Shown here: positions 16,272-56,252 of the stretch, piece after piece
Position numbering within the stretch: position 1 is the first letter of the stretch
Layout: every line of letters starts with the position of its first letter
Assembly: GCA_018673915.1 (NCBI GenBank)
Contig: JABHBK010000001.1
Span: 68,069-132,068, forward strand
DNA length: 64,000 nt
DNA from: Nitrospina sp.
GTDB lineage: Bacteria > Nitrospinota > Nitrospinia > Nitrospinales > VA-1
Direction of reading: 5' to 3'
Notes under the pieces: generated by a model
The model's database searches: none
What the model saw: only the letters and a program-made list of their open reading frames with translations
Told to the model about the DNA's origin: nothing
Made by a program: the position numbers and the translations under genes

Positions 16272-16298
16272 AAGAAAAATCAGTCGTTAATGGCAAGT

Positions 16299-16342
16299 AA
16301 GCCCCATTCCTATCAGAGTATTGATGGGATGGGGCTTTTTTT
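16299..16342. terminator. bidirectional stem-loop terminator between convergent bfr and fur
   Basis: AAGCCCCATTCC pairs with GGGATGGGGCTT (12 bp, one G-U) across a 15-nt loop, followed by TTTTTTT. Confidence 0.6.
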
Positions 16343-16366
16343 GTGACAAGTGAAGGATGAGGGCGC

Positions 16367-16795: not shown

Positions 16796-16942
16796 ATTTT
16801 TAGTTGAGAAAGATTATCAAAGTCATAATATTGTGAAAAAAGTATAATAAAACCTGAAAAAATACAAGCTTTATGAGATAAAAGGTTTTAACTCGTTATA
16901 AATAGGGGGTTTAAAGAAATAAAAAATAATTGCGCATAGGGG

Positions 16943-16985
16943 TTGACAGGAGAGGTTTTTTTATCTATATTGATAACCGTTATCA
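16943..16985 (+). promoter_or_regulatory. sigma-70 promoter with overlapping Fur box 1
   Basis: TTGACA (16943-16948), a 17-bp spacer, then TATATT (16966-16971). The palindrome TGATAACCGTTATCA (16971-16985) overlaps the -10 and the start site. Confidence 0.7.
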
Positions 16986-17005
16986 ATTTAAAAGGCGGTG
17001 ACTCA

Positions 17006-17269
17006 ATGCAAGAACAAAATGTGAGAATTTGTAAGGGGCCGGGTTGCAAGGCATGGTCATCGGACCAAATTGCCAGAGAGTTGCTGGAGATTGGGGAAGC
17101 TTTAGATCTCGAGCAGTTAAAAGTTTGTCGCGTCCCTTGCATGAAAGTATGTGGTGGTGGGGCATCTTTTCGCGTCAATGCAAAATCTGCAATTATTAAA
17201 CTGAAAGAAGTGGACGATGTTTTGAATGTTTTAGGCATCCGTGAGGGAGCTGTAACTTGCCAGGCTTAG
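17006..17269 (+). CDS. thioredoxin-like [2Fe-2S] ferredoxin-family protein
   Basis: An internal ATG lies after AAGGCGG. The Cys pattern C-x4-C...C-x3-C (ICKGPGC ... VCRVPCMKVCGGG) is typical of TRX-like ferredoxins. Confidence 0.6.
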   Translation: MQEQNVRICKGPGCKAWSSDQIARELLEIGEALDLEQLKVCRVPCMKVCGGGASFRVNAKSAIIKLKEVDDVLNVLGIREGAVTCQA

Positions 17270-17295
17270 GCTAAAAAAATTTGCTTTTTTTATTT

Positions 17296-17325
17296 ATGAC
17301 AATGATTATCAAAATTAAATATAGT
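17296..17325 (+). promoter_or_regulatory. promoter with Fur box 2 in front of the DUF2325 gene
   Basis: ATGACA-18 bp-TATAGT. The palindrome TGACAATGATTATCA (17297-17311) covers the -35 and spacer. Confidence 0.6.
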
Positions 17326-17363
17326 TAACGTTTCTGCTTGGTTTTGAGAAAGGAGCCGGGTTT

Positions 17364-17660
17364 ATGAGTGTTGCAATAGTGGGCGGTTTGGATCGACTAA
17401 AAAGACTTTATGAGAAGAAGTGTGTGGATATGGGATATCAGGGCAAAGTATTTAGTAAGCGTGTCCCTAACCTTGCTAACAGGATGACCGGAGTCAATGG
17501 AATTGTCATTTTTACCGGTACGGTGGCACACCCCATGGTTGAAGAGGCCACCCGTGTGGCACGGATGTGGAATATTCCTCTTGAGCGCAGTCATTCCAGT
17601 AGTGTTTCAGCTTTAAAACGTTGCCTGGAGGGTTTTTCTGATGGTGAGAGGGCGGTATGA
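17364..17660 (+). CDS. DUF2325 domain protein
   Basis: VAIVGGLDRLKRLYEKK...VNGIVIFTGTVAHPMVEEATRVARMWNIPLERSHSSSVSAL fits my recollection of DUF2325. Confidence 0.55.
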   Translation: MSVAIVGGLDRLKRLYEKKCVDMGYQGKVFSKRVPNLANRMTGVNGIVIFTGTVAHPMVEEATRVARMWNIPLERSHSSSVSALKRCLEGFSDGERAV

Positions 17661-18058
17661 ATATTTTTCCAAGAAAAATTCTAATGGCTCATGGGGATAA
17701 GGAAGAAAGGGGAAAGCTGGCTATTATGTTAGCCCGCTTTGGTCATTGCATTTCATTTGCAGATGCCATTAGCAGGTCAAAGTTTTCCGTTGATGAATAT
17801 GATTTGATCATTGTGGATGAACATTTGGCCCAAAGCGCATGGTTTGCTTTTCTGCAACATCTTTCAAGCGAAAACCAGGCTAAAACCATTTTTTTGTCGA
17901 GCGAAGGCAAAAAAGAGAGAAGATTATTTCGCGATTCCATGGGTATCTATGAATGCCTGCAAAAGCCTGTGATACCGATTGACCTTGCAGTTGTGGTTTG
18001 TGATTTTTTTATATCATGTTTTCCAAATACAAAAATTGCTACTCCAATGAGTTTATAG
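17657..18058 (+). CDS. atypical (pseudo-)receiver domain protein
   Basis: REC-like layout KILMAHGD / DLIIVDEHL / TIFLSS / CLQKP. The usual N-terminal DD pair is HGD. The ATGA overlap with the DUF2325 gene suggests translational coupling. Confidence 0.45.
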   Translation: MNIFPRKILMAHGDKEERGKLAIMLARFGHCISFADAISRSKFSVDEYDLIIVDEHLAQSAWFAFLQHLSSENQAKTIFLSSEGKKERRLFRDSMGIYECLQKPVIPIDLAVVVCDFFISCFPNTKIATPMSL

Positions 18059-34847: not shown

Positions 34848-35648
34848 TTACTTCGCTGTCAATTCAAAGTTAGCGTTGATTTTTGCTCCTTCTGCTACCG
34901 TGACTTCCTGAGTCATTTCCCCTACATAAGGATGCCATGCGGTGACTTTGTAAGTACCGGCAGGAATATTATCCAAGGTGAATGAGTCTGTGCTCACGGT
35001 GTAGTAAGGATTCCAAACGATTCGCGCATCTGCTTCCATGTAGTTATGCTGGTCGCATTGCAGGAAAAAATGGGAATCCTTTTTAGCTTTTAATCGCTTG
35101 AGGGACTTGGTGACATCGGCAATAGACCCTTTAGAAGGAAGCGGTTTATTAAACAGCGTTTTACGATTCGCTCCTTTAATGGAATAACCGTGTGGGTTGT
35201 GCAGAGTGTTCTCGTCTTGATTGGTCACTTGCACCAAGCCTTCTTTCATACCTTTTGGTGTTTTACGGATGACCGTTACCTTGGGGAAAATATCACATTG
35301 CCGGAAATCGAAATTCACAGTTTTTTCAGACCAGGCTTTGCCTTTGCTGATATTTTCGATCAGGATCACTGCGTTGTGAAGTTTTCCATCTTTAACCTCT
35401 ACTTTCTGCCTGGGTCGGATACCTCCCTCTTGTGTATCGGGGTGGGTGGCGCAGAACTCGGCATTTTTGCCTTTGCTCAAATCTTCCAGGATAGGCGCGG
35501 GGACGTTTCCTTTGAACATAACGCTTCCTGTAATAGACCCCCCATTGGAAACCTTTGCTTCTTCATAGCTGGCTTTCTTTGCGTGAACATTACCCGCCAG
35601 GGCCAGTGTGATTACGGTAGTGACTGCTATTAAGTTTAATTTTTTCAT
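34848..35648 (-). CDS. periplasmic cupredoxin-like (type-1 Cu) protein flanked by carboxypeptidase-regulatory-like segments
   Basis: Signal peptide present. VTNQDENTLHNPHGY plus the FFLQCDQHNYM loop (H ... C-x2-H-x2-M). GSITGSV... at the N-terminus and FTLDNIPAGTYKVTAW...ANFEL at the C-terminus. Confidence 0.6.
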   Translation of the reverse strand: MKKLNLIAVTTVITLALAGNVHAKKASYEEAKVSNGGSITGSVMFKGNVPAPILEDLSKGKNAEFCATHPDTQEGGIRPRQKVEVKDGKLHNAVILIENISKGKAWSEKTVNFDFRQCDIFPKVTVIRKTPKGMKEGLVQVTNQDENTLHNPHGYSIKGANRKTLFNKPLPSKGSIADVTKSLKRLKAKKDSHFFLQCDQHNYMEADARIVWNPYYTVSTDSFTLDNIPAGTYKVTAWHPYVGEMTQEVTVAEGAKINANFELTAK

Positions 35649-35907: not shown

Positions 35908-35923
35908 AGCAAGGCTCATGCCG
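35908..35923 (-). promoter_or_regulatory. sigma-54 promoter
   Basis: The minus strand reads CGGCAT-gagcc-TTGCT (GG-N10-GC spacing correct), about 40 nt upstream of the small-ORF ATG. Confidence 0.65.
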
Positions 35924-36069: not shown

Positions 36070-37428
36070 CTAGGTTAACTGGTATTTTTTTAGCATGCGG
36101 TAAAACGTGCTGCGGCTGATTCCCAAAGCTTTCGCCGCACCGGGGATATTTCCGTCGGTTTGTTCCAAGGCCTGGTTTAGAGTTTGCTTGACCACTTCAT
36201 GGTAGGGAGTGAGACCCTCGGTTTTTGCATTTATCTTTTCATCAGTAGGAGCTGAAGAGTCGAAGACGTCTTCGGGTAAACAGTCGGCGTCCAGAGTGTC
36301 GTAGGAGGTGACGATCATGGCCTGATAAAGAGTGTTTTCGAGTTGGCGGATGTTTCCGGGCCAGGAATATTCCTGCAAAATCTGCATGGCTTCATCACTG
36401 ACTGACAGGATTTCTTTGCCAATATCTTTTTGATGTTTTTTAAGGAAATGGCTGCAAAGCGGAGGAATGTCTTCTACTCTATCCCGCAAGGCGGAGACTT
36501 CTATGGGAAAGACGGCCAGCCGATAATAAAGGTCTTCTCGAAAGGCTTCTTTTTCAATCAATGTTTTAAGATTTTTGTTGGTCGCACAGATTACCCGGGT
36601 ATCAACCTGTATTTTTTGGGTGTCTCCCACGCGCTCTAAATATTTTTCCTGCAAAAAGCGCAACAATTTGGCCTGGGTGGAGAGGCTCATTTCCGCCACC
36701 TCATCGAGAAACAGGGTGCCTCCATCTGCCAGCTCCAGTTTTCCGGGTCGAGATTCGGTGGCGCCGGTGAAAGCCCCTTTTTTATGGCCGAACAATTCGC
36801 TTTCCTGTAGTGATTCGGGAATGGCTCCGCAATTGATATCTACAAAAGGTCCTTTGGCGTAGGTGCTGTTACGATGAACGGCGCGGGCAATGAGTTCTTT
36901 TCCGGTTCCGGTTTCTCCGAGAATGAGTACGCTGGCTTTGGTGGGTGCGACCTGATGAACTTTTTTTAGTGTTTCATTTAACGCATTACTATTGCCTATG
37001 ATTTCATCTTTTCCGGATAGACGGTCCACTTCGCTTTGCAGGTGGTGGACTTTGCGGACCAGGTTTCTTTGTTCAAAGGCTTTATCCAGACAGGTAAAAA
37101 GACGGGTTTCATCAACAGGTTTTAAAAGATAGTCATAAGCACCTAGCTTGATCACTTCGACAGCGGTTTCGACTTTGTCAACGCTGGTGAGCATGACCAC
37201 AGGTATATCTGGGTGGGTGGCTTTGATTTGTTTTAAAGTTTCCTGGCCGCTCAGGCCGGGCATCATCACATCGAGGAGGATCAGAGAAGGATTGTCCTCC
37301 AGTGCGTCAAGCAAGGCTTTTCCGCTTTCGAATTTTTGCACTGCATAGCCCTGGTCTTCCAAAAGCGCCTTCATCAGGCCTCTCAGCGGGGAATCATCAT
37401 CGACTACGAATATCAACTCAGTGGCCAT
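36070..37428 (-). CDS. sigma-54-dependent response regulator (NtrC family)
   Basis: REC domain (VVDDD, LILLDVMMPG, KP). AAA+ domain with GETGTGKE, GAFTGA and LFLDEV. C-terminal Fis-type HTH. Confidence 0.93.
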   Translation of the reverse strand: MATELIFVVDDDSPLRGLMKALLEDQGYAVQKFESGKALLDALEDNPSLILLDVMMPGLSGQETLKQIKATHPDIPVVMLTSVDKVETAVEVIKLGAYDYLLKPVDETRLFTCLDKAFEQRNLVRKVHHLQSEVDRLSGKDEIIGNSNALNETLKKVHQVAPTKASVLILGETGTGKELIARAVHRNSTYAKGPFVDINCGAIPESLQESELFGHKKGAFTGATESRPGKLELADGGTLFLDEVAEMSLSTQAKLLRFLQEKYLERVGDTQKIQVDTRVICATNKNLKTLIEKEAFREDLYYRLAVFPIEVSALRDRVEDIPPLCSHFLKKHQKDIGKEILSVSDEAMQILQEYSWPGNIRQLENTLYQAMIVTSYDTLDADCLPEDVFDSSAPTDEKINAKTEGLTPYHEVVKQTLNQALEQTDGNIPGAAKALGISRSTFYRMLKKYQLT

Positions 37429-37548
37429 TTTAATTCAAATCAATAGGTTAGGCTTATCATTCATTGATTGTAGCCCACTCCGCAAAATTTAAGAAAAAAA
37501 TGATAAACTGATGGTGTTCACAATTTCAAGGAAAGGTGAAAATTTCAA

Positions 37549-39297
37549 ATGGGATCGTTGGCAAGTCAAACTAGAGGGGTTTTGTTGGCAGGATTGGTTT
37601 TGGCTATTGTGAGTTGGGGTATTGCTCGCGATCGTGCTCAGAAAACCTGGTTCAATGAATTGGAGCAGGAGGTTCTGGAAGACACTCTTATTCTGACTGG
37701 AGAACTGGAAGTAGTGAAGAGGGAATTGGGAGGCATAGTGTCCCTTTATAATTCTTCAGAATTTGTAAGTCGGGAAGAGTTTGGAGCTTATGTCCAGCCT
37801 CTTTTAAGGAACCATCCCTTCATTCAGGCCTTTGAGTGGATTCCGCTTATTGACCACTCGGAAAGGGAAGGGTTTGAAGGCATTACCCGTTCTATGGGAT
37901 ATGTAGAGTTTCATGTCTTTTCATCGTCAGGTCCCTCCGAGGCAAAGCAGGAATATTTTCCGGTACATTATGTAGAACCTATTCCCGGCAATGAGCAGAC
38001 GCTTGGCTTTGATCTGGCTTCTGATCCGAAATTGTTAGAACTCACCAATACCGCGAGAGATACGGGAAGAGAAGTTGCGGCTTCACGGTTTGGGCCGGTA
38101 CCCAACGCCCGATCACAATTGGATATGATAATTCTTGCTCCTTATTATAATGGAGGAAAGAACCCAGAACGAACTGAAGAAAGACGGGAGCATTTAAAAG
38201 GTTTTGTGCTTGGTATTTATCGAGTTGGGGACATGATTGATCAAATGCTCAATCCTTATATTCCCAATGGAATGAATTTAACTGTTTACGAGGAAGGTGA
38301 TCTGGTTCCAGAAAATCTACTTTATGGTAATTCTTTAAAAAATCCAGCCATGAAGATCACCAACGTTGTTACTGTTTCCAACCGTCGCTGGTTTTTGGTT
38401 TGGCAGGTTACTGAAGAGTTTCGCGGTGGGCCTCAAACATTAAATGCGTTTTGGGTGGGGCTTGCCATTTTATCAGGAGCCCTGTTTCTATCTATTATCA
38501 TCGAGATAATGGCATCGCGAACTCGTGTTGTGGAGAGTGAGGTTCGGGTTCGTACGGAAGAATTGACTCAGGCAAACCAGAAGCTGGTTGAGTTGAACGA
38601 TTTAAAAAATAAATTTCTTGGAATGGCATCGCACGATCTCAGGAATCCTCTTGCTTCGATTCGTGGTTATTCGAAATTTCTTTTAGATAAAGGAATGCAA
38701 GTCAAGGAGGATACACGACAGGAATTTTTAACAAGCATTAAAAATGTCAGTGGAAATATGTTGGAGTTGATCAGCAACCTTTTGGATATCTCGGTGATTG
38801 AGAGTGGGCAGTTGAAACTGAACCCCGAAAAAGCATCCATAAAAAAACTCGCTGAAGAGAAAATCCATCTGCAACAGATTTTGGCGGATAAAAAAAATAT
38901 TGTCCTCCATGCGGATTTGGAAGAGGTTCCGGAATTTTATTTTGACGCAAACCGTATGGGGCAGGTGATGGATAATCTTCTCAGTAATGCGGTTAAGTAT
39001 TCACCGCCGGATAAAGAGGTTTTTGTCAAGCTGGAGTCGACGGGAGAAATCATGACTGTCAGCGTAAAGGATGACGGGCCAGGGATTTCCCCAGATGAGC
39101 AGGGGCAGCTATTCCAGCATTTTCAAAAATTAAGCGCCCGACCCACGGGGGGTGAAAGCAGTTCTGGCTTGGGGTTGGCTATTGCTCAGAGAATTGTGGA
39201 AGAACATCAAGGTAGCATTGGTGTGGATAGCCAACTCGGTCAGGGGGCTACGTTTTACTTTTCTTTGCCCACTGGGAATCTGGAAACTACGGAATAA
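37549..39297 (+). CDS. CHASE-domain sensor histidine kinase
   Basis: The periplasmic region has FIQAFEWIP...FPVHYVEP...LGFDLASDP (CHASE-like). A TM helix follows, then H-box ASHDLRNPL and HATPase NAVKYS/DDGPGI/GLGLAI. Confidence 0.85.
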   Translation: MGSLASQTRGVLLAGLVLAIVSWGIARDRAQKTWFNELEQEVLEDTLILTGELEVVKRELGGIVSLYNSSEFVSREEFGAYVQPLLRNHPFIQAFEWIPLIDHSEREGFEGITRSMGYVEFHVFSSSGPSEAKQEYFPVHYVEPIPGNEQTLGFDLASDPKLLELTNTARDTGREVAASRFGPVPNARSQLDMIILAPYYNGGKNPERTEERREHLKGFVLGIYRVGDMIDQMLNPYIPNGMNLTVYEEGDLVPENLLYGNSLKNPAMKITNVVTVSNRRWFLVWQVTEEFRGGPQTLNAFWVGLAILSGALFLSIIIEIMASRTRVVESEVRVRTEELTQANQKLVELNDLKNKFLGMASHDLRNPLASIRGYSKFLLDKGMQVKEDTRQEFLTSIKNVSGNMLELISNLLDISVIESGQLKLNPEKASIKKLAEEKIHLQQILADKKNIVLHADLEEVPEFYFDANRMGQVMDNLLSNAVKYSPPDKEVFVKLESTGEIMTVSVKDDGPGISPDEQGQLFQHFQKLSARPTGGESSSGLGLAIAQRIVEEHQGSIGVDSQLGQGATFYFSLPTGNLETTE

Positions 39298-42842: not shown

Positions 42843-43904
42843 ATGCATTTTAATTCACAAACAGATTCTACAGCCCTAGATTATACCTACCAGGAATTGG
42901 AGGATGAGTTCGTAGGTTTGATGAATTTGAATAATCTGGATAGAGTCATTGCGGGAAACCCTGATCGGGTTGAAAGTTTTGAGTTGGAACTTGAAGTTTC
43001 TTTGTCTGCCGCATTTGAAAGTGGTGCGGGTTGCCCTCAAGCACGCTTGCTTTTGCAGAGAATTCTATATCGCATAAACCGTTTGAAACTTTTTTGGTAT
43101 GACGGATTAGACAATTATGCCAATGAAGATTCCAGTTTCCTGTTTTCATTACGAATGAAAATTGAGAATGCCTGGCAGGATTGGGAGGATGGTAATAACA
43201 TCATGCGCAATTCCGATGATCTCCGCGGGGCTCTTCGTGATCGTGTGCAGGATGACCTGCAACCCGAGCCGTCGCCGGATGGTTTGGTCATTCGTAATGA
43301 GATTTCAAAAGCCGGGTACCAGCAATTGCTCGCTATAACTTCCCTGGACGGTCTGGTGGAAGCGAGTCAGCTTTCCCGTATGCTTGGAGGTGTCGGAAAC
43401 GAAGTGCAGACGATGCTGACGCGGATTTTATGGGAAGAATATGGTAGTGGAAAATTTTCGCGAAAGCATTCCACACATTTCGCACTCATGCTGGAAGAAT
43501 GTGATTTAGATTCAAGGCCGGAAGTTTATTTTGATCTTGCGCCGTGGGAGGTGCTGGCAAATATTAACCATAGTTTTTTTCTTTCCGAGCGTAAGAAAAA
43601 CTTTTTACGTTATATCGGTGGTTTGCTCTACACGGAAGTTTCTGTTCCTGCTGCGTTTCAAAATATCAAAATGGCTGGTGAGCGTTTGGAAATGGGTGGA
43701 AAGGGGGTCAGCTATTGGGATCTTCATATCCAAGAGGATATCCGCCATGGGCAATGGATGCTGGATGATGTTGCCTTTCCCCTGATTGAAAAATATCCTG
43801 ATCAAGCCTGGGACATGGTAAAGGGGTATGACCAGCAAAAGTTTATCAGCTCCCGTGCGACCTCAGCCATTGTAGAGTCCATTCGACAACTGGAATTCTC
43901 CTGA
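42843..43904 (+). CDS. haem-oxygenase-like di-iron (iron-containing redox enzyme) family protein
   Basis: LWEEYGSGKFSRKHSTHF (E..E/H helix) and YWDLHIQEDIRHGQW (H-x2-ED-x2-H) are typical metal-ligand helices of the family. No Shine-Dalgarno sequence, so the start is uncertain. Confidence 0.6.
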   Translation: MHFNSQTDSTALDYTYQELEDEFVGLMNLNNLDRVIAGNPDRVESFELELEVSLSAAFESGAGCPQARLLLQRILYRINRLKLFWYDGLDNYANEDSSFLFSLRMKIENAWQDWEDGNNIMRNSDDLRGALRDRVQDDLQPEPSPDGLVIRNEISKAGYQQLLAITSLDGLVEASQLSRMLGGVGNEVQTMLTRILWEEYGSGKFSRKHSTHFALMLEECDLDSRPEVYFDLAPWEVLANINHSFFLSERKKNFLRYIGGLLYTEVSVPAAFQNIKMAGERLEMGGKGVSYWDLHIQEDIRHGQWMLDDVAFPLIEKYPDQAWDMVKGYDQQKFISSRATSAIVESIRQLEFS

Positions 43905-43920: not shown

Positions 43921-44352
43921 TCAGGAAGAAATATCCAAAGTCTTTTTTGTGTCAATGGTCAACAATAAGGCGTCCTTGAGTTTATAGACTCCATGAATCA
44001 ATTGGCGTGCTACGTCATCCAATGTTTCGGGAGGAGGCTCAAGGGCTTCATCCCCCACCTCGAGAACATCTCCGATGCGGTCAACCAGGAGGCTCACTAC
44101 ATCATCATCGGTCCTGATAACTACATTCATGGGTTTCTTGTCACCTGGAAGGTCTTTCATTCCTAGCCGACGTCTCAAATCAATGGCTGTAATGATTTGT
44201 CCTCTGAGATTGATCAATCCTCGAACCACTGAGGGAGCAAGTGGAACCTGCGTCATTTCCTGGTAGCGAAAAACTTCCTGCACCCGTTCCACTTCGACAC
44301 CAAAAAAACGATCCTCAAGGTAAAATGTGCAAAACTGTTTTTGATCATTCAT
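43921..44352 (-). CDS. cheW: chemotaxis coupling protein CheW
   Basis: 143 aa. FCTFYLEDRFFGVEVERVQEV...PLAPSVVRGLINLRGQIITAIDL. Confidence 0.92.
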   Translation of the reverse strand: MNDQKQFCTFYLEDRFFGVEVERVQEVFRYQEMTQVPLAPSVVRGLINLRGQIITAIDLRRRLGMKDLPGDKKPMNVVIRTDDDVVSLLVDRIGDVLEVGDEALEPPPETLDDVARQLIHGVYKLKDALLLTIDTKKTLDISS

Positions 44353-44476
44353 GGCTTACTTCCTCAAGTTTTTTTCAATCATGGAGCTGCATATTCTTTA
44401 TCTAAAGGAACGGAGTACAGCCAGCAATTGATTTCATATCGATCCTTTCATCAAGAATTAGAAACAGGAATGACCA

Positions 44477-47113
44477 TTAATGGGTTAAACTCAAAACCTC
44501 TTGGTGGTCATCAAAAAATGCTGGGTCCATTTCACGAACAATGCCCTCCATGTCAATCAAGTCCGTGACCAAATCTTGAACCACTACCGTTCCCAGGATT
44601 CCTTTCCGTGTAAGAGATCTTTTTACAGTTATATTTTCTTCGACAATATCAAGAATTTGATCGACCACCAGGGCTACACTTTTATTTTGGTGCGTGTATA
44701 TGATCGTTTGAATCGTTGCATTCTTTTTGACCTGTTGGCTGGAATCGAAAAAATTTAAAAGATCAATAAGAGGTATGATTTCTCCTCGGTATTGAATGAC
44801 GTCATTGTTTCCTGAGCGTTCAATGTCCGAACATTTGAATTCCTCCAGGCGTGCGACAGTAGAAAGCGGGATGGAGTTTCGTCCTTTTTCTCCAACTCTA
44901 AAGATCAATAAGGTTTCCTTGTCAGTAACCTCATTGTCTGCCAGGCTTTTATCTTTCGAATCTGCCATGGCTTGCTCCTGGTTTTCACGGACTACCTGTG
45001 CCTTTTGAGCCAGACCCATTATGTCAAGGATCAGTGCCACGCTTCCGTCTCCCATAATGGTTGCTCCAGAAAAACCTGCGATTCCCTTCAATTGGTTTCC
45101 CAAGGGTTTCACTACAATTTCCTCCGCATCACAGATCTGCTCAACGACGAGGCCAAACTGTCTTTCATTGGCGTTTAAAACAACAATATTGGTCGCTGTT
45201 TGAGCACTTTCATTTTTTGAAATTCCCAGTTCAGAATTCAAATTTATGATGGGCAAAAGGTTACCTCGAAGACGATATACCGGGGTCCCTTGAATCGTTT
45301 CGATCGCTTTTTCAGACTGCTCCTCATTCAAACGGACCAGCTCCAGCAGATTCACTTGAGGTATTGCATACTGGTTGCCTCCTGTTGAAACGATCAAAGC
45401 TGGAATAATTGCCAGGGTTAAAGGAATTCTTACTTTCAGGGTGGTGCCTTCCCCTTGACAGGTATGAATATCAACCGTTCCACCAATTTTATCAATATTG
45501 GTTTTAACCACATCCATCCCGACACCACGACCGGATACATTTGTAACTGCTTTCGCTGTAGAAAGCCCAGGCATGAAAATAAGGTTCACCAATTCGCGCT
45601 CGCCCATTTTTGCAGCCTGCTCGCTGGTGATCAAACCTTTGCTCAAGGCTTTTTCTTTGAGGATAGAGGGGTCAATTCCACCGCCATCATCTGTGATTTC
45701 AATAATGACCTGTCCTCCCTCATGGTAGGATTTCAGCTGTAAAACGCCTTCCTCAGGTTTACCTAGGTCGCGTCTTACATCGGGGATTTCTATCCCATGG
45801 TCTACTGAGTTACGTATAATATGTGTTAGCGGATCCTTAATCGCCTCGATCAAGGTTTTGTCCAGCTCCGTTTCTTTTCCTTCCGTTTCAAGGCGAATTT
45901 TCTTGCCGCATTCCATGGACAAATCACGAACTATTCTGGGGAACTTGCTCCAAATTCCGCCTATAGGCTGCATCCGCGTTTTCATCACTCCTTCCTGAAG
46001 ATCAGAAGTCACCAAATTTAAATGCTGGGAAGTTTCCATGAAGCTGGCATCATGGTGAGAGGAACTAAACTGCAGAACCTGATTTCTAGCTAAGACCAGT
46101 TCTCCAACCAGGTTCATCAGCTTATCAAGCAACTGGACATCAACGCGAATACTGGAATCCTCCAGCTTGCGCTCTTCCTTTTTTGCCGTACCTGAGCCAG
46201 AAGATTTTTTAACTTTTCCATTGGATGGGGTTACTTCAGGTTTTCCGTTCCCGGGCGTAAGACCTGACACTTCAGGAGCCTCTTTAGTTAGGGCTATTTC
46301 TTTTTTGGAGGGTTCTGATTTTGTTCGATTCAGAACATCATTTTTAACAGAAAGCGCTATGCGGGCCGCCTCCCCAATTAAATCACCGGGAACTTTCAAT
46401 TCCATCAAGGTCGTTCCAAAGTCTTCTATGACCGCATCAAAATGGCTTTCGTTCAGGCCTTTCTCTTCTACAAGATATTTGTGCGTTTCCCTGAGTCCTC
46501 TTCCGTCATAATTACTGGGGCCGCCAAACGCGAAAGCCAAAAACTCTTTTTGCTTATTCAGAAGGTGGTTCAAGTCTGCGCCTTCAAAAAAATGACTGAT
46601 ACGGTCGTCATTTAGAACTTTTGCGTAAAACAGGTTGACCGTTGCATCGACCGCTTCTTGTCCACCCATTCTCTCAAAAAGGGATGCAGGCTTTGCACCA
46701 TTCCCATTTCCTGAGGCTGGTTTTCCAGTCGCATCTGCCCGCAGGCGTTCCATGGACTCAATTAATCCAGAAAAATTATGATCTCCTTCATTTCCCTGTT
46801 TAGTTACAGATGTGAATATTCTGCGTATTGAATCTGACAGTTCATGCAGGATATTCATGATTTCTGGAGTTGGTGCTACCTTGCCCTGCTGAAGCGCATC
46901 TAGAAAGTTTTCACCAGAGTGGGTTAGAGATTCGAGCTTGGTGTAACCAATTAATCCGCAGCTACCCTTGATGTTATGGATAGTTCGAAAAATACCTTCT
47001 AATAATTCCGGGGAATGGGGAGTTTCTTCCAGGCTAATCAGGTCCTGATCAAACCGATCCAGGTTCTCACGACTCTCGGCCACAAACTCCAAGATCATTT
47101 CATTGGCTTGCAT
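44477..47113 (-). CDS. cheA: CheA-type histidine kinase with embedded truncated-globin domain and two CheW-like domains
   Basis: ATG at 47113 follows AGGAAGGA. Hpt domain (FRTIHNIKGS), globin-like insert, dimerisation helix, HATPase (NSVDHGIE, DDGGGI, GRGVGMDVV), then two CheW-like modules. Confidence 0.92.
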   Translation of the reverse strand: MQANEMILEFVAESRENLDRFDQDLISLEETPHSPELLEGIFRTIHNIKGSCGLIGYTKLESLTHSGENFLDALQQGKVAPTPEIMNILHELSDSIRRIFTSVTKQGNEGDHNFSGLIESMERLRADATGKPASGNGNGAKPASLFERMGGQEAVDATVNLFYAKVLNDDRISHFFEGADLNHLLNKQKEFLAFAFGGPSNYDGRGLRETHKYLVEEKGLNESHFDAVIEDFGTTLMELKVPGDLIGEAARIALSVKNDVLNRTKSEPSKKEIALTKEAPEVSGLTPGNGKPEVTPSNGKVKKSSGSGTAKKEERKLEDSSIRVDVQLLDKLMNLVGELVLARNQVLQFSSSHHDASFMETSQHLNLVTSDLQEGVMKTRMQPIGGIWSKFPRIVRDLSMECGKKIRLETEGKETELDKTLIEAIKDPLTHIIRNSVDHGIEIPDVRRDLGKPEEGVLQLKSYHEGGQVIIEITDDGGGIDPSILKEKALSKGLITSEQAAKMGERELVNLIFMPGLSTAKAVTNVSGRGVGMDVVKTNIDKIGGTVDIHTCQGEGTTLKVRIPLTLAIIPALIVSTGGNQYAIPQVNLLELVRLNEEQSEKAIETIQGTPVYRLRGNLLPIINLNSELGISKNESAQTATNIVVLNANERQFGLVVEQICDAEEIVVKPLGNQLKGIAGFSGATIMGDGSVALILDIMGLAQKAQVVRENQEQAMADSKDKSLADNEVTDKETLLIFRVGEKGRNSIPLSTVARLEEFKCSDIERSGNNDVIQYRGEIIPLIDLLNFFDSSQQVKKNATIQTIIYTHQNKSVALVVDQILDIVEENITVKRSLTRKGILGTVVVQDLVTDLIDMEGIVREMDPAFFDDHQEVLSLTH
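46328..46687 (-). other. group-I truncated haemoglobin (Bac_globin-like) domain inside CheA
   Basis: SLFERMGGQEAVDATVNLFYAKVLNDDRISHFFEGADLNHLLNKQKEFLAFAFGGPSNYDGRGLRETHKYL...HFDAV, colinear with M. tuberculosis HbN as I recall it. Confidence 0.75.
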
Positions 47114-47189
47114 GATTGATTCCTTCCTTATTTCTTTAGTATTCACGGGCCTTACCTCCAGATAAAGTTCCCGAAACTGTTGGGAGTTT

Positions 47190-47227
47190 ATTGAAGGGCT
47201 TCGGGTTTTTAACCGAAGCCCTTCAAT
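47190..47227 (-). other. perfect 15-bp intercistronic hairpin between mcp and cheA
   Basis: ATTGAAGGGCTTCGG, an 8-nt loop, then CCGAAGCCCTTCAAT. No U-run on either strand. Confidence 0.8.
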
Positions 47228-47242
47228 GCAAATACCGACTGT

Positions 47243-49264
47243 TTAGCCATTAAACTCGCTGACAATATTTTGCATTTCTGCCGCCAGTTTAGACAATTCA
47301 CTCGCTGCTGTTTGAGTATCCGTAGCACCTTCGGTGGTGCTATGAGCCGCCTGAGCCACACCGGCAATATTCTCGGCAATCTCTTGAGATCCGCGGGAGG
47401 CATCGGTGACATTACGGGTGATCTCGTTGGTGGTGGCCGACTGCTCCTCCACCGCACTGGCAATGGTGTTGGAGATATCGCTGATCTGGCCAATAACCCC
47501 GCTGATCTCACCAATAGCAGTTACAGCACTCTGAGTATCCGTTTGTATGGCGGAGATTTTACTGCTGATTTCCTCGGTAGCCTTGGCAGTCTGATTAGCC
47601 AGTTCCTTGACCTCGTTGGCGACTACGGCGAATCCTTTACCTGCTTCACCAGCACGTGCTGCTTCAATGGTGGCATTCAAGGCCAATAGATTGGTCTGTT
47701 CCGCAATCGAGGTGATGACTTTGATGACTTGGCCAATCTCAGCCGAACTGACTCCCAACTGGGTCACTGTCTTGTTGGTGGTCTCGGCCAACTGAACCGC
47801 ATCGCTGGTGACTTTGGTAGCCTGGTTGGCGTTATGAGCAATCTCTTTTATGCTTGCGCTCATTTCTTCCGAACCGGTAGCTACCGTTTGAATGTTCTGG
47901 TTCACCTGATCGGAGGCGGCAGAGACGACATTGGACTGAGCCGAAGTCTCTTCCGCATTTCCGGCCATTTGCTGGCTGGTGGCGGTCAACTCCTCTGAGG
48001 CTCCGGCAAGGGTCTGGGCTTTTTCCGCAACATTGTTAAGAACCTTCTGCATGTTTTCGTTCTGTTCTTTTTCGCGTTTTTCAGCCGCCAGTTTTTCGGT
48101 AATCACTTCCCAGGTAACCATGGGCCCGAGGTAATTTTTATCCTTATCATAGATAGCACTGACCAGAAGATCGAGGACCTCAGGACCCACTTGTATTTCT
48201 GCACGATGTGGCAGGTTATTGGGATCAGATAGAATTTTGCGCTGATGTGCAGGGTTCTTGTGGAAAACATCTATGGATGAACCCATTAATTGGTCCACTC
48301 GAATAGGAAGATGTTGTTCAATGGTTTTTAATGTTGTAACGGATGCTGGGTTGACGTAGGTGATTTGAAAGGTTTCTGCATCAGCAAAAAGCACGTTCAC
48401 TGGGGCATTTTCCATCATGGAGTTAACTCGGGCGACTTCATTCTCGGTCTTTAACTTTTGAGTTATAACGTCCCAAGTGACCATCGGTCCCAGGTAGTTC
48501 TTGTTTTCATCATAAATAGCGCTGACCAGAAGATCGAGGATCTCAGGCCCAACTTGTATTTCTGTACGATGCGGCAGGTTATTGGGATCAGAAAGAAGTT
48601 TTCTTTGGTGCGCGGGGTTCTTGTGAAAAACATCTATGCATTGTCCCATCAATTTATCCACAGGAATGGGTAAATATTGTTCAATGGTTTTTAACGTCTT
48701 TATGGAAGCAGGGTTGACATAGGTGATTTCAAAACTATCTTTATCGGCATATATGACGTTAACCGGGGCGTTCTCCATCATTGAGTTGACCCTATCCATA
48801 GCCCGTTTCGTGATATTGATTTTGGTGACATCTTCCCAGTTGACGACATAACCGGAAATCATACCATTGGAATCGTTGATTGAGTTTATGGTAGCGGCAA
48901 GCGTCACCCCACCAAAACCAAACTCAGCCGTGTGCGGCAAAGCAGAAGGATTGCGTAAAATTCTTTCAATCTTTTGCGGGTCTTTATGAAACCGGTGGAT
49001 GGAACCACCGACGATATCGTTCAGGTTAACCCCAAATGCTTCATTAATCTGGTCCTTGATGGTTTCCAAGGTGTTCACAGCACTTTGATTGGCGTAAACG
49101 AGAGTGAAATTTGTATCCGCCACCAGCACATTTGCTTGAACATTGTCCAGGCAGGAAAGCAGACCTCCCGAAGATTTCATTAAACCATTACTGCCATTTC
49201 CTCCACCAAACAGGCCGAGAAATCCAGATTTACTTGCAGATGATTGGGTGGCGAGCATATTCAT
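47243..49264 (-). CDS. soluble methyl-accepting chemotaxis protein with three N-terminal PAS domains
   Basis: No TM helix. Three PAS modules each carry FHK(N/D)P...W(D/E)(D/V). The C-terminal MCP signalling domain has ([29 protein letters not shown]). GGAGGA Shine-Dalgarno sequence. Confidence 0.92.
48092..48793 (-). repeat. tandem 363-bp duplication encoding PAS2 and PAS3 of the MCP
   Basis: GACCAGAAGATCGAGGA occurs at 48161 and 48524, an offset of 363. The protein copies differ at 20 of 113 aligned residues by my count. Confidence 0.9.
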
Positions 49265-49408
49265 TTTTTTTCCTCCAAAATATTTTGTGTAGTTAGGAAC
49301 TTATTTCGGGTAAAAGCTTATTCCCAATAATGGGTCCTAATTTAAGACAGGTAGTTAGTTTCCTTGATTAAACTCTAAATGCTTTTCACTTTAACTAAAC
49401 ATAAGTAA

Positions 49409-49424
49409 AGCAAAAGGTATGCCA
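49409..49424 (-). promoter_or_regulatory. sigma-54 promoter of the mcp-cheA-cheW operon
   Basis: The minus strand reads TGGCAT-acctt-TTGCT, about 145 nt upstream of the mcp ATG. Confidence 0.7.
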
Positions 49425-49733
49425 AAAACCTGATAATCTTATAAGGGCTTATTTAACAGTGTAGAGATAAAAATGCTGATGTTTTTTTGTTGTGATTTGT
49501 TCCAATTTTTTTATATTCACCAGTGAAGTGTGTTTAAATGTTTTTATAGGGAGAGGGCGCTTCAAAAATGAGGAGGCCCATTTTGATAGGGAGCAATGTG
49601 CCTTGAGAGTTACTAATGAGGTTAAAAAGTTTGTAGGAAAGGAAGCAAAAAGAGGAAAGCCCGCTTTGAGGGGCAATCCTTTTTCCATGAAAATTCTGGT
49701 TTTGGAGCGGATTTCCAAAAACCCATAGCCCGT

Positions 49734-51107
49734 TTAAATAAAATATTTACGTTTCAGGCCTAGAGCCTTGAGGCGATTGTAAAGAGTTTGCCGGGAAAGG
49801 CCCAAATTGGTATAAGTTTTTTTGATATCCCCTTTATTGCGAGTCAGTTCTTGAGAGATCAGACTTTTTTCTATAGCGGCTAATTGGTTATTCAATCCGG
49901 TAGGAGGATTCTTAAGTGTTTGTTGAATAGAAACCTGAATATCATTTTCTGCGCTTGGGGTGCTGGTATCGGGAAGGCCCAGGACGAATTTGTCGGCTTC
50001 ATTTTTAAGTTCACGAACGTTTCCCTCCCACTTGCGAGACTGGAGAGCAATAATAAGCTCTGGAGAAGGGACCGGCGGTGTTTTCTGATTGTAGCGTGAA
50101 CAGGCATCCAATATTAGATGATGAAACAATAATGGGATATCTTCAACCCGCTCGCGCAGAGGGGGGAGAGCGATTTGAACCACATTGAGGCGATAATACA
50201 AATCTTCCCGGAACAGGTTTTGTTCACTGGCTAATTTTAGATCTGTTTTTGTTGCGGCAATAATACGGATATCCAGAGGTATGAGTTCGTTGGAACCGAC
50301 TCGCTCAATCGCTTTTTCTTGAATCACACGGAGAAGCTTTACCTGAAGGTGCAGGGGCATACTTTCAATTTCATCCAGGAAAACGGTTCCTTTGTTGGAG
50401 TGCTCAAATTTTCCGATCCTTTTACGGTCTGCGCCGGTAAAGGCCCCTGCTTCATGACCGAACAACTCACTCTCAATAATATTTTCAGGCATAGCCCCGC
50501 AATTGATAGCTGTAAATTTATGATTGCTTCTTTTGCTGGACTGATGAATATTTTGAGCGATGAGGTCTTTTCCCGTTCCCGTTTCTCCAAAAATAAGTAT
50601 GTCGGCATCGGCATCGGCGATATTTGAAATAACCTGACGAAGACGTTCGATGGAAGGGGACTTCCCTACAATCATATTCTTAGTGTCGTTTTGGTGGTTG
50701 ATTTTGGATCGGAGGTTCCTCACTTCCATAACAAGGCGGCGCTTTTCCTTTGCCCGTTTAATGGCATCTATGAAGGTTTCGGTAGCAAAAGGTTTTTCTA
50801 AAAATTCATAAGCTCCGTTTTGGATCGCCTGGACTGCCATGGAGATATTCCCCTGGCCTGTAATGAGGATGACGGGGATTTCCGGGTCTACTTCTTTGAC
50901 TTTTTCCATCAAGGTCAGGCCATTCATTTTTGGCATTATTACATCGCTCACCAATACGCCTGGCCAATCTGGTGAAATGGAAGCCAGAGCATCTTGTGCG
51001 GAATCAAAATCTTCCACTTCAAAGTTTTTATTTTGAAGTTCTCTTTTGAGGGATAAGCGGACCACTTTTTCGTCATCAACTAAAAAAACTTTTTCGCTGG
51101 TACTCAT
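49734..51107 (-). CDS. sigma-54-dependent response regulator (NtrC family)
   Basis: REC domain (FLVDDE, VLVSDVIMPKMNG, KP). AAA+ domain with GETGTGKD, GAFTGA and VFLDEI. C-terminal HTH. Confidence 0.93.
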   Translation of the reverse strand: MSTSEKVFLVDDEKVVRLSLKRELQNKNFEVEDFDSAQDALASISPDWPGVLVSDVIMPKMNGLTLMEKVKEVDPEIPVILITGQGNISMAVQAIQNGAYEFLEKPFATETFIDAIKRAKEKRRLVMEVRNLRSKINHQNDTKNMIVGKSPSIERLRQVISNIADADADILIFGETGTGKDLIAQNIHQSSKRSNHKFTAINCGAMPENIIESELFGHEAGAFTGADRKRIGKFEHSNKGTVFLDEIESMPLHLQVKLLRVIQEKAIERVGSNELIPLDIRIIAATKTDLKLASEQNLFREDLYYRLNVVQIALPPLRERVEDIPLLFHHLILDACSRYNQKTPPVPSPELIIALQSRKWEGNVRELKNEADKFVLGLPDTSTPSAENDIQVSIQQTLKNPPTGLNNQLAAIEKSLISQELTRNKGDIKKTYTNLGLSRQTLYNRLKALGLKRKYFI

Positions 51108-51148
51108 ATTTATTATTCCCAAAAATATTGTTCTTAATAATTAGACCT

Positions 51149-52393
51149 TTAAATTGATTCTTCTCCATTTGAATTAATGGGAAGGGTGATTATGGATTGA
51201 GTCCCTCGTCCCTCGGTGCTTCGGACTTTTAAATCTCCGCCATGTTTTTTAATGATTCCGTAACTGACAGAAAGCCCCAGGCCTGTGCCTTTAACCTCTC
51301 CCTTAGTCGTAAAGAAAGGGTCAAAAATTTTTTCCATGTGTTGCTGTTTTATGCCCTGCCCGATATCCTCAATTTCTACTTCAACGTTTGAATTGAGAAC
51401 TTTGGTGCGAATAGTTATTGCTCCACCCTTTTTGCAGGCCTCATTTGAGTTTTGCAGGAGGTTTAAAATGACCTGTTTGAACTGGTCTTCCACCACTCTG
51501 ACATCGGGTAAACACTCAACGTACTCCTTGGTCAACTGTATATTCTCTTTGTTGAAATCATTCTTCTTGAGCATGAGCATGTCATCAATAGCATTATGAA
51601 GGTTCAAGGGTTGAGGTGTTCCCGAAGTAGGGCGGTAAAAGTCTTTAAGCTGATGAGCGAGGTTCATGACGCGATTGCTCTCATTGATTGAAAGCTCCAC
51701 CAGTTCTTTCAGAGAGTCTTCCATGGTGGTTCCCTGCTGAACCTGTTCAAGGGTATTGCGAATTCCCATCAGAGGGTTGTTGAATTCATGAGCGATACTT
51801 GCGGCTAATTGACCGAGAGCCGAAAGTTTTTCGACGTGCAAAAGTTGCTGATTAACATTTTGCAACTCTTTTTCTGATCGTTCCCGTTCGGCTATTTCTT
51901 TTTTAAGTTGTTGGTTAGCCAGTTTTAGATCGGCGGTTCTTTCAAGCACTCTCTGCTCAACAAAATCTTTTTGAGCTCCAAGGTTTTTATTCAGCAACCG
52001 CACTTCAAGAATATTTTGAATTCTGCAAAGCACCTCCGATAGATCCAGAGGTTTAGACAAGAAATCCCGAGCGCCGAACTGCAGTGCCTTGAGGCGAACC
52101 GATGGGTCAGATTCTGCAGTTAATACCAGAATGGGCGCATAAGAGTCATCATTTTCAATTTGCTTGATTTGCTCAATGACCTGAAAGCCATCCAAATGTG
52201 GCATTCTCAAATCTAGCAAAACAAGGTCTGGTTTAAGTTCCTGGTATAGAGATGCCGCTTTTCTGGAGTCTGTTGTGCTGGTGATGCAGCTATAATTTGC
52301 CTGTTTTAATGCCGACTCCAGGACAATGATGTTTGAGCTCTCATCATCTACCATAAGGATTTTGGCTTTTAAAATTTCAGCTTTATCTATCAT
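51149..52393 (-). CDS. hybrid protein: N-terminal receiver domain plus histidine kinase
   Basis: REC domain (ILMVDDE, LVLLDLRMPHLDG, KP), a coiled coil, H-box IAHEFNNPL, and HATPase NSNEAC/DIGQGI/GTGLGLS. Confidence 0.9.
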   Translation of the reverse strand: MIDKAEILKAKILMVDDESSNIIVLESALKQANYSCITSTTDSRKAASLYQELKPDLVLLDLRMPHLDGFQVIEQIKQIENDDSYAPILVLTAESDPSVRLKALQFGARDFLSKPLDLSEVLCRIQNILEVRLLNKNLGAQKDFVEQRVLERTADLKLANQQLKKEIAERERSEKELQNVNQQLLHVEKLSALGQLAASIAHEFNNPLMGIRNTLEQVQQGTTMEDSLKELVELSINESNRVMNLAHQLKDFYRPTSGTPQPLNLHNAIDDMLMLKKNDFNKENIQLTKEYVECLPDVRVVEDQFKQVILNLLQNSNEACKKGGAITIRTKVLNSNVEVEIEDIGQGIKQQHMEKIFDPFFTTKGEVKGTGLGLSVSYGIIKKHGGDLKVRSTEGRGTQSIITLPINSNGEESI

Positions 52394-52499
52394 AGCGGCG
52401 ATCCGAAAAACTTGAGTTTGTTCATGGAGCTACTTTAAGCGTTAAACTGAGCCACCTATTGGATGAATAGTCTTAAAGAAGTTATCTGCTGAAGTAAAG

Positions 52500-52515
52500 A
52501 GCAAGATAAGTGCCA
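52500..52515 (-). promoter_or_regulatory. sigma-54 promoter of the REC-HK / NtrC-type regulator operon
   Basis: The minus strand reads TGGCAC-ttatc-TTGCT (consensus -24 and -12), about 105 nt upstream of the ATG at 52393. Confidence 0.75.
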
Positions 52516-52901
52516 CAAATAGGCATAAGCTTATGATTTAAAATTCAAGCAATCAGAGACCAATATAAGTAATTGTATTTTAAATGATTACTTGTCTTAT
52601 CTCGGGTTGATAAAGTTAAATGGCGATAGGCAATGGAGTAAAAATGATCAAAATATCCGGGCAGAATGTATTGATTAGTTTACAAAATAAGCGGCTGCAT
52701 GTAAAAGAAATTTGCGGGAACTATGAGGGAGCTAATCGTCAGAATTATTCCCTAGCTGGGCTTTGCTTGGACTGGCGGCCTATGGCTGCTCCTTGGACTT
52801 GCTTTTTTATAGCGGTGTCTAATAATTTTGCAGGATAACTAGGAATGACTCTAAAGCAGGGGAAGTTTCTGTAAAGCCTGGTAAAACAAGTTTAATGATG
52901 C

Positions 52902-55433: not shown

Positions 55434-56252
55434 ATGATTGAGTTTGATATAGATCAAATATCCGGAATGAAAATTCTCATTGTGGATGATATTTTGGAGA
55501 ATGTGGATATTTTGGGCCATATTCTTCAACGAAGTGGTTTGGAGATTTCTATTTCTCCAACGGGTGAAAAGGCTCTTGAGGTGATCAGCAAGAATAAGCC
55601 AGACCTGATTCTGATGGATATCAAAATGCCGGGTATGGATGGTTACGAAGTTTGTGCCAAGCTGAAAGCTGATGTGAAAACCAAAGATATTCCCGTTATT
55701 TTTATTACTGCCATGTCAAGTACCGAAGACCTGGTTCGGTCATATAATGCGGGTGGTATCGATTATATTGCCAAACCCTTTCAGGAACAGGAAGTCGTTT
55801 GCAGGATAACCACCCAGCTTAAACTCAAAAAAGCCCAGGATGAAGTAATGCGCCGGGAAAAATTTTATCGGGTCATTGTGGAGAGTGTGCCAGACCTGAT
55901 ATTTCAGTTGGACCCGGATCGGGAAATTATATTCGCGAATCCTGCCTTCCGCCTACTGGGTTATGACCCGGTTGAGCTAGTTGGTACGCCTATCGGAGAC
56001 TTGATCGAATCAGAGAATAAGGAAAGTCTTCTGCAAAGTCTTGCGACTAGAAATGTTGGTCCTCTGGCGATCAGCGACCTTGAGGTTAATTTGAAGGTCA
56101 GTAATGAAGTGAGTCTGGTAACCGAATTGTCAAACCAGAAGATTCTTGTTGATTCCGTCGGCCTTTGGAATGTTTCAGATGAAGACGTTTTCAGGGAGAA
56201 TGTAGATAAGAAGTTTTTAGGAACTCTTTGTGTAGGGAAAAAAGCCGAATAG
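55434..56252 (+). CDS. response regulator: receiver plus PAS domain
   Basis: ILIVDDILEN, LILMDIKMPGMDG, AKP. Then a PAS-like region YRVIVESVPDLIFQLDPDREIIFANPAF. Confidence 0.85.
   Translation: MIEFDIDQISGMKILIVDDILENVDILGHILQRSGLEISISPTGEKALEVISKNKPDLILMDIKMPGMDGYEVCAKLKADVKTKDIPVIFITAMSSTEDLVRSYNAGGIDYIAKPFQEQEVVCRITTQLKLKKAQDEVMRREKFYRVIVESVPDLIFQLDPDREIIFANPAFRLLGYDPVELVGTPIGDLIESENKESLLQSLATRNVGPLAISDLEVNLKVSNEVSLVTELSNQKILVDSVGLWNVSDEDVFRENVDKKFLGTLCVGKKAE

Follow-up and report, generated by a model that had tools for sequence, protein, structure and literature searches.

Two described chemosensory systems come closest to the locus considered here. The Che3 system of M. xanthus works through CrdS and CrdA, the latter being an NtrC homologue (PMC3147164), and in R. 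centenum CheA3 phosphorylates REC1 of the REC-kinase CheS3 (REC, receiver domain), which controls CheY3 (PMC3868531). The locus itself is a gene cluster on the minus strand (43921-52515) of a 64 kb window, i.e. the whole stretch of DNA that was analysed, from a metagenome-assembled genome (MAG) of Nitrospina sp. It is a second chemosensory module in the Nitrospina genome, is built around predicted haem sensors, and is a variant on known Che-to-transcription pathways, for which both the step from CheA to a REC-kinase and that from a Che system to NtrC have precedents. The gene order read in a first-pass annotation of the window, namely sigma-54 promoter, REC-kinase, NtrC-type activator, sigma-54 promoter, methyl-accepting chemotaxis protein (MCP), CheA and CheW, was recovered in full, with the genes identified by Pfam.

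Like M. xanthus Che3, the locus is a Che cluster without CheY, with, as is proposed here, an NtrC-type activator as the output and a classical kinase acting on the same activator, so that a chemosensory and a two-component system would meet at transcription. CheB and CheR, which M. xanthus Che3 keeps together with two transmembrane MCPs, are both missing from the Nitrospina cluster, whose only MCP is soluble and of the haem-PAS type. CheA3 of M. xanthus is a CheA-REC hybrid without a sensor; the Nitrospina CheA lacks a receiver and contains a truncated haemoglobin. Furthermore, the Nitrospina kinase has an N-terminal receiver that CrdS lacks, which points to CheA and the kinase acting in series and not in parallel. 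M. xanthus Che3 is known from experiment, the Nitrospina locus from genes alone. The phosphate flow in R. centenum Che3 is the one proposed for Nitrospina, with a different end regulator: single-domain CheY3 and cyst formation in the former, an NtrC-type activator (proposed) in the latter. The R. centenum cluster contains CheB, CheR and CheY and no haem domains, while the reverse holds true for the Nitrospina cluster.

As the best model, held tentatively and at slightly less than an even chance, we propose that a gas signal is passed from the haem-MCP and the globin-bearing CheA to the receiver of the kinase, from there to the NtrC-type activator and finally to the sigma-54 promoters. The haem-PAS MCP, CheW and globin-CheA would form a signalling complex responding to O2, possibly to nitric oxide (NO) or carbon monoxide (CO), at the level of both receptor and kinase. 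CheA would autophosphorylate on H57 of its P1 domain, and P1 would hand the phosphate to the D61 receiver of the adjacent, sensor-less REC-kinase. Phosphorylation of D61 would set the kinase/phosphatase balance of this enzyme toward its NtrC-type partner, as in an NtrB/NtrC-type pair. The activator would then drive both sigma-54 promoters, that of its own operon and that of the mcp-cheA-cheW operon, creating a feedback loop, and presumably further targets elsewhere. Every phosphotransfer step as well as the regulon is a prediction. The model is favoured because the kinase receiver belongs to a receiver subfamily termed REC-X, the linkage to NtrC is conserved, the promoters lie at the operon heads, P1 has diverged fast, and precedents exist.

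Most nitrite oxidation in the sea is carried out by Nitrospina, which thrives along the margins of oxygen-minimum zones. The locus is a concrete candidate for its sensing of oxygen or NO and consists of testable parts: two types of haem sensor, one kinase, four candidate receivers and two promoters.

Predicted haem sensors in the receptor and in CheA

The Aer2 receptors of P. aeruginosa, V. cholerae and V. vulnificus are soluble MCPs with one to three PAS domains, which bind b-type haem via a conserved His and stabilise O2 via a conserved Trp (PMC10107281). The soluble MCP of the Nitrospina cluster (673 aa; 47243-49264, minus strand; Pfam and PDB matches) likewise comprises, as does Aer2 of V. 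vulnificus, three predicted PAS-haem domains (48086-49156, minus strand; aa 37-150, 158-271 and 280-393), all of which match the Aer2 haem-PAS structures 6ceq, 3vol and 4hi4 in the PDB. The haem-ligand His (E-eta) is present in each repeat at residues 93, 214 and 335, and the O2-stabilising Trp (I-beta) at residues 143, 264 and 385. PAS2 and PAS3 are 82% identical, and the motif FHKNPAHQR is the same as in P. aeruginosa Aer2.

The remaining part of the receptor differs from the Aer2 core, which consists of a C-terminal PAS, a di-HAMP and a 36H module. In the Nitrospina MCP no HAMP was matched by Pfam, and PAS3 is followed by the kinase-control module after only ~20 residues. An alignment of this module with Tsr (36H) shows one 7-residue gap per arm, in symmetric positions. 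Since both arms are shortened in this way, the module is assigned as 34H-like, a class read from the Tsr alignment alone. Due to the missing di-HAMP and the 34H-like module, as opposed to the 36H module of Aer2, the MCP is not regarded as an Aer2 orthologue. The genomic setting differs as well: Aer2 sits in complete CheAWYRDB clusters, whereas CheY, CheR, CheD and CheB are all missing from the Nitrospina cluster.

CheA is normally a sensor-less kinase that is controlled by receptors. In the CheA of the cluster (889 aa; 44477-47146, minus strand; Pfam, AlphaFold2 and Foldseek), Pfam identified Hpt/P1, Bac_globin (aa 155-253), H-kinase_dim/P3, HATPase_c/P4 and two CheW-like domains including P5. 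The phosphorylatable H57 of P1 lies in the motif TIHNIKG and is invariant across 8 lineages, and the model of P1 is highly similar to Salmonella P1 (1i5n; template modelling score (TM) 0.90, Foldseek). The AlphaFold2 model of residues 1-300 (mean per-residue confidence, pLDDT, 77) is all-helical, with P1 and the globin joined by disordered linkers.

The globin domain (aa 152-272; 46331-46693, minus strand) was delimited by phmmer, fold and residue positions. It matches Synechocystis GlbN over its full length (phmmer E = 1.8e-34), and its fold agrees with 6cii, 3aq5 and 1idr (Foldseek TM 0.92-0.93, root-mean-square deviation 1.3-1.5 A). TyrB10 (Y174), LeuE7, LysE10, GlnE11 (Q199) and the proximal HisF8 (H222) could be assigned, and H222 is invariant in the 8 lineages. 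The Leu at E7 is shared with M. tuberculosis HbN. Judged by sequence and model, a group I truncated haemoglobin (2-on-2, ~120 residues) occupies the region that separates P1 from P3. As in globin-coupled sensors such as HemAT, a globin is thus predicted to give a chemotaxis-type protein direct haem-based gas sensing. In globin-coupled sensors, however, an N-terminal 3-on-3 protoglobin-like globin is attached to an MCP, a cyclase or a kinase, while in Nitrospina an internal 2-on-2 group I globin is found between P1 and P3. Within the library searched, no paper was found on a CheA carrying a truncated haemoglobin. The globin-bearing CheA is the most original element of the locus.

That the receptor as well as the kinase carries haem sensors, namely Aer2-type PAS domains and a truncated haemoglobin, is accordingly upheld at the level of sequence; haem binding and the gas ligand of these domains are predicted from the residues described. 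If this is correct, the truncated haemoglobin inserted after P1 and before P3 throughout the lineage would mean sensing by CheA itself.

The first-pass annotation had also noticed that CheA lacks a recognisable CheY-docking P2 domain. This could be reproduced, as Pfam gave no match to P2 and the all-helical model of residues 1-300 contains neither a beta strand nor a P2-like fold. Its use as a clue to the partner of CheA did not survive. A paralogous CheA of the same organism, which has 954 aa, a tandem Hpt (2xHpt) and no globin and is encoded in a CheY-CheX-CheA-CheW-CheB cluster, also comprises no recognisable P2. Since this CheA lies beside CheY, the missing P2 is uninformative with regard to the phosphotransfer partner, and P2 is dispensable in the Nitrospina lineage. 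A more far-reaching idea is that the truncated haemoglobin, located in place of P2, gates phosphotransfer from P1 and, together with the three-haem receptor, constitutes a two-tier O2/NO logic device that relays to transcription and not to the flagellar motor. We regard this idea as doubtful; if true, transcription in the ocean's main nitrite oxidiser would be reprogrammed as oxygen falls.

Candidate phosphotransfer partners and sigma-54 promoters

The REC-HisKA-HATPase kinase (414 aa; 51149-52393, minus strand; Pfam) comprises an N-terminal receiver (D61) as its sole input domain, and the phosphorylatable H202 is present. Since the kinase has no input domain besides this receiver, an upstream phosphodonor is required, and the cluster encodes no further kinase except CheA. 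The kinase contains an NtrB-like H-box and its gene directly precedes that of the activator, as in a classical cognate pair. Over its full length it is 51% identical to the kinase paired with NtrC in locus L014, one of the relatives described below. The NtrC-type sigma-54 activator (REC-AAA+-HTH_8; 49734-51122, minus strand) shows the expected catalytic residues, with a receiver (D60), a Walker A motif GETGTGK at 179, GAFTGA at 226 and HTH_8 (Pfam Response_reg and Sigma54_activat). Its open reading frame (ORF) of 462 aa has no exact public record, as the public gene call starts 5 codons later with an ATG at 51107 and yields 457 aa. Orthologues in L013 and L014 are 56-57% identical.

A receiver tree was calculated from all receiver domains of the loci examined. 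In this tree the receiver of the window's kinase falls into the tight subfamily REC-X (48-54% identity, 100/100 bootstrap), which among these loci is found only in clusters with a globin-CheA linked to NtrC. Fusion partners of REC-X are HisKA kinases (L013, L014) and HD-GYP (L013, L016); in L016 the sigma-54 activator, too, carries a REC-X receiver. The receiver of the window's NtrC-type activator does not belong to REC-X and groups with activators located beside HisKA kinases (52-56% identity, 100/100 bootstrap).

The REC-X-HD-GYP proteins recall the Wsp system of Pseudomonas, in which a Che-like kinase targets a receiver fused to GGDEF. Wsp works without a sigma-54 component, its receptor is located in the membrane, and CheB and CheR are part of the system. 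Comparable to Wsp, a REC-X-HD-GYP protein, i.e. a cyclic-di-GMP enzyme, is encoded beside globin-cheA in L013 and L016, and a REC-HD-GYP protein is also encoded in the P0160 locus. The window itself contains no REC-HD-GYP gene.

CheA proteins of the Hpt-globin type are widespread in Nitrospinota, with 46-79% identity and dozens of 90% clusters. An NtrC-type activator is linked to the globin-CheA in five Nitrospinota lineages, namely the window, the P0160 locus, L016, L013 and L014/15. In all five the activator gene lies immediately upstream, either directly before cheA or, in the window and the P0160 locus, before mcp-cheA, and all five encode at least one REC-kinase. The P0160 locus (78% identity) is arranged as histidine kinase (HK), NtrC, small ORF, MCP, CheA, VTT, CheW, REC-HK-REC and REC-HD-GYP. 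L016 (75%) comprises NtrC, small ORF, CheA, REC-HD-GYP, REC-HK and MHYT-PAS-HK, with neither MCP nor CheW. L013 (52%) and L014/15 (55%) share REC-GAF-PAS-HK, NtrC, CheA, a dCache-PAS hybrid kinase, REC-HK and a single-domain REC; CheW is encoded in L014/15 but not in L013, and L014 holds a second REC-HK/NtrC pair. The linkage to NtrC is also seen in relatives without an MCP, two of which lack cheW as well. Of the five-gene block, the conservation of which had been named as a check, the linkage of activator and globin-cheA recurs in five lineages, while gene orders are rearranged and MCP or cheW is missing in some of them.

Some properties of the searches define the extent of these comparisons. 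The scan of the contig collection returned one distant locus. The scan of metagenome contigs was keyed on generic P1 patterns, so that 77 of the 80 loci were ordinary CheAs, while L024 (MCP-CheA-PAS) and L025 were informative. Short queries (the CheA N-terminus and REC-X) matched only proteins of similar length and missed full-length proteins.

A comparison of the CheA domains points in the same direction as the receiver tree. In the clade formed by the CheAs of the window, P0160 and L016, P1 is 40-52% identical to that of all other members, compared to 59-69% for P3-P5. Outside this clade P1 is more conserved than P3-P5 (e.g. 77 vs 69% and 91 vs 77%). P1 of the window's clade has, by these identities, diverged unusually fast, which is the pattern expected after a change of the phosphotransfer partner. 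The family can be regarded as a natural experiment, in which one globin-CheA scaffold has neighbours of the CheY/CheX/CheB or MotAB type in part of the lineages and of the NtrC/REC-kinase/REC-HD-GYP type in the rest, and in the window's clade the rewiring would coincide with a marked acceleration of P1.

The third line of evidence concerns the promoters. A scan for TGGCAC-N5-TTGCW with exact spacing, in which GG at -24 and GC at -12 were required, gave its best match on both strands of the 64 kb window at 52500-52515 (minus strand; TGGCACttatcTTGCT, 11/11) and its second-best at 49409-49424 (minus strand; TGGCATaccttTTGCT, 10/11), as the first-pass annotation had located them. Both are intergenic. 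The former lies 107 nt upstream of the kinase ATG (52393) at the head of the REC-kinase/NtrC operon, the latter 145 nt upstream of the mcp ATG at the head of the mcp-cheA-cheW operon. This placement of both promoters at operon heads exceeds the chance expectation. Their dependence on RpoN is predicted from the motif. Weaker matches at 4849 and 21632 were rejected, both having no GC at -12. Scans for sigma-70 promoters and terminators gave nothing above the shuffled expectation.

Among the relatives with DNA available for a promoter comparison, L016 is the closest. It contains a perfect sigma-54 promoter between the activator gene and the small ORF preceding cheA, and a second sigma-54 promoter before the REC-HD-GYP gene. 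Both are preceded, ~100-150 nt upstream, by the palindrome ATAACG-N6-CGTTAT and a second related site (9280-9330 and 12730-12780), which is a likely activator-binding enhancer. An equivalent of this palindrome was not found in the window. In L013 and L014, sigma-54 promoters precede the gene of a conserved protein of 73 aa, a homologue of the small-ORF product in L016.

Several further observations were made around these promoters. In the window, a near-palindrome ATAAG(C/A)TTAT is located 8-9 nt upstream of both -24 boxes (ATAAGCTTAT at 52525-52534 and ATAAGATTAT at 49433-49442, minus strand); it may serve as a site for a regulator or an IHF-type protein, or may have arisen by chance in AT-rich DNA. 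The small protein of the three relatives (61-73 aa; L016:9486-9671, L013:18635-18856 and L014:21852-22073) starts with M-x-Y-x-V-R, belongs to no Pfam family and is encoded directly downstream of near-perfect sigma-54 promoters. An unannotated 67-aa ORF, the sequence of which could not be read, is also located between ntrC and mcp in the P0160 locus, while an ORF of this kind is missing from the window. Finally, in L013 (2929-5197) and L014 (3014-5312) a sigma-54 promoter precedes a conserved gene pair just upstream of the REC-GAF-PAS kinase. The pair encodes a ~500-aa membrane protein and a ~220-aa lipoprotein with a faint vWA match, both unassigned in function, which may be members of the regulon.

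Competing explanations for the output

The main rival explanation is an accessory aerotaxis array. In this case the haem-MCP, globin-CheA and CheW would phosphorylate a distal CheY (and CheB), with flagellar motility as the output, and the REC-kinase/NtrC pair, receiving its input from another kinase, would only time the expression of the module via the sigma-54 promoters. We consider this explanation rather unlikely.

A number of observations weigh against the proposed relay, and several of them support an aerotaxis array. The absence of CheY from the module does not extend to the genome, as a canonical CheY-CheX-CheA-CheW-CheB cluster lies elsewhere in the same MAGs. The accessions of the canonical CheY, CheX, CheW and CheB occur in the same four MAG series as the window proteins (for example MBT3366576-80 of the canonical cluster near MBT3366488), and from these accession blocks we infer that the genomes are shared. 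In addition, flagellar and chemotaxis genes are reported for the Nitrospina/Nitromaritima core genome, with motility never having been observed (Ngugi et al., PMC5029188). Within the globin-CheA family itself, L012 and L025 encode the protein in a CheY-CheX-CheA-CheW arrangement, and L017 comprises FlbD-MotA-MotB-CheA-CheW with CheY and CheB nearby. Even the NtrC-linked clusters of L013 and L014 contain a single-domain receiver and a CheA with a canonical-type P1. As described before, the paralogous CheA likewise has no P2.

The proteins of the module may also be connected to the canonical system. Three methylation-type motifs are kept in the MCP, which suggests that it is still served by CheB and CheR encoded elsewhere. 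With their canonical paralogues, CheA P3-P5 and CheW share 66-67% identity (67% for CheW), so that mixed arrays and cross-talk are plausible. The sigma-54 promoter directly upstream of mcp is equally well explained by regulators that merely control the expression of the module. An enhancer common to both window promoters was not identified, the shared words being, apart from the near-palindrome mentioned above, of the kind expected by chance in AT-rich DNA. Furthermore, the comparison covers only about ten lineages, and the CheA tree is not resolved at its deep nodes (35-48% bootstrap). Due to these low values, monophyly of the NtrC-linked CheAs is not claimed.

Three findings speak for the relay to the REC-kinase and against an aerotaxis array. 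The fast divergence of P1 in the window's clade is unexpected if CheY stayed the partner of CheA. NtrC and REC-X proteins are still linked to globin-cheA in relatives without an adjacent MCP and CheW. Moreover, the kinase that would time the expression lacks a sensor domain, and its surroundings offer no other candidate donor.

According to a second alternative, CheA phosphorylates the receiver of the NtrC-type activator directly, a route first put forward for CrdA of M. xanthus, and the REC-kinase acts as a parallel kinase/phosphatase for the same activator. The situation in M. xanthus, where CrdS and CheA3 both act on CrdA, is consistent with this. In L016 the activator encoded just upstream of globin-cheA carries a REC-X-type receiver, which makes a direct route from CheA to the activator plausible in that locus. 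For the window it is improbable: the receiver of its activator lies outside REC-X, with the HisKA-paired activators mentioned above, and the position of a kinase with an NtrB-like H-box directly upstream of the activator is the classical cognate arrangement.

A branched output, in which CheA serves both the local REC-kinase and a distal CheY/CheB and in this way couples regulation and taxis to one gas signal, is given a similarly small chance. The evidence for the proposed relay and that for an aerotaxis array are not mutually exclusive, and the clusters of L013 and L014 hold REC-X proteins together with a single-domain receiver. The strongly diverged P1, on the other hand, speaks against a retained dual specificity.

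Chance adjacency of a two-component pair and functionally unrelated che genes is very unlikely, since the linkage recurs in five lineages with otherwise rearranged gene orders and the mcp operon is directly preceded by an activator gene and a sigma-54 promoter, while L006, which places mcp-cheA-cheW behind unrelated housekeeping genes, is a mosaic and probably an assembly chimera.

Genomic neighbourhood and additional observations

CheW (143 aa; 43921-44352, minus strand; Pfam E = 3.9e-30) terminates the cluster. As stated in the first-pass annotation, cheY, cheB, cheR and flagellar genes are missing in and near the cluster; domain and homology searches found none in the entire 64 kb window. 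Its statement that the kinase and the NtrC-type protein carry the only receivers nearby has to be corrected. A divergent gene for a REC-PAS protein (272 aa; 55434-56252, plus strand; Pfam) is located 3 kb upstream, and genes for a second NtrC-type regulator and a CHASE kinase (36070-39297) lie 6.5 kb beyond cheW, on the side away from the promoters. The receiver of the REC-PAS protein is the nearest outgroup to REC-X (64% bootstrap). The gene is kept on contigs of the same species only, and its membership in the pathway is uncertain. In addition, a 133-aa ORF (17657-18058, plus strand) gave only a sub-threshold receiver match (Pfam E = 4e-4, 20.9 bits) and may encode a degenerate single-domain receiver.

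A weaker sigma-54-like motif (CGGCATgagccTTGCT, 9/11) was observed at 35908-35923 (minus strand), intergenic and just downstream of the second NtrC-type gene (36070-37428). It lies 260 nt upstream of a gene for a secreted fn3/CarboxypepD_reg-like protein (34848-35648) and is a possible target of the second NtrC-type activator and its CHASE-kinase partner (37549-39297).

Genes related to haem and iron are found at 11122-16795 and 42843-43904. They encode an HbpS-like haem-degrading protein, a HemN-like radical-SAM enzyme, a ferritin-like protein, a Fur-family regulator and Haem_oxygenas_2. The gene of the latter, annotated as an iron-containing redox enzyme, is convergent with cheW, an adjacency that is kept in contigs of the same species only. 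A cytochrome b at the 3' end of the window had suggested that the canonical che cluster, which follows a Rieske/cytochrome b pair, begins just past the window. This was rejected, as no DNA similarity exists between the two regions.

CheA, MCP, REC-kinase and CheW as well as the neighbouring redox enzyme have exact matches among the proteins of Nitrospina sp. MAGs, and the segment 43921-52515 occurs verbatim in contig JABHEN010000037.1 of GCA_018676555.1. An apparent variation in the number of PAS repeats (calls of 673 vs 539 aa) was discarded, as the DNA is identical and the shorter product reflects only the start chosen by the gene caller.

L006 was not accepted as evidence for a decoupling of the two operons. 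Compared to the window (47620-49264), L006:7139-9530 comprises a divergent haem-PAS part of mcp behind GerE, NrdR and SHMT genes. The two copies differ by 12% over the 5' 1650 nt of mcp only, with zero mismatches thereafter. The mosaic is probably an assembly chimera with a paralogous mcp; otherwise it may point to a further tri-PAS MCP gene, paralogous to that of the window and located elsewhere, or to a recombinant strain.

Additional candidates for gas sensing were noticed in the relatives and in public metagenomes. The cluster of L016 ends with an MHYT-PAS-HisKA-HATPase kinase (15780-17897). MHYT is a membrane domain for which sensing of O2, CO or NO has been proposed, and it would fit the gas theme of the clusters. 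In public metagenomes (P0291, P0292, P0043 and P0039), truncated haemoglobins occur in tandem with 3 copies in ~400 aa, and in 1882 aa as many as 12 stretches are matched. One metagenome protein of 449 aa comprises an Hpt and two truncated-haemoglobin domains without a kinase part.

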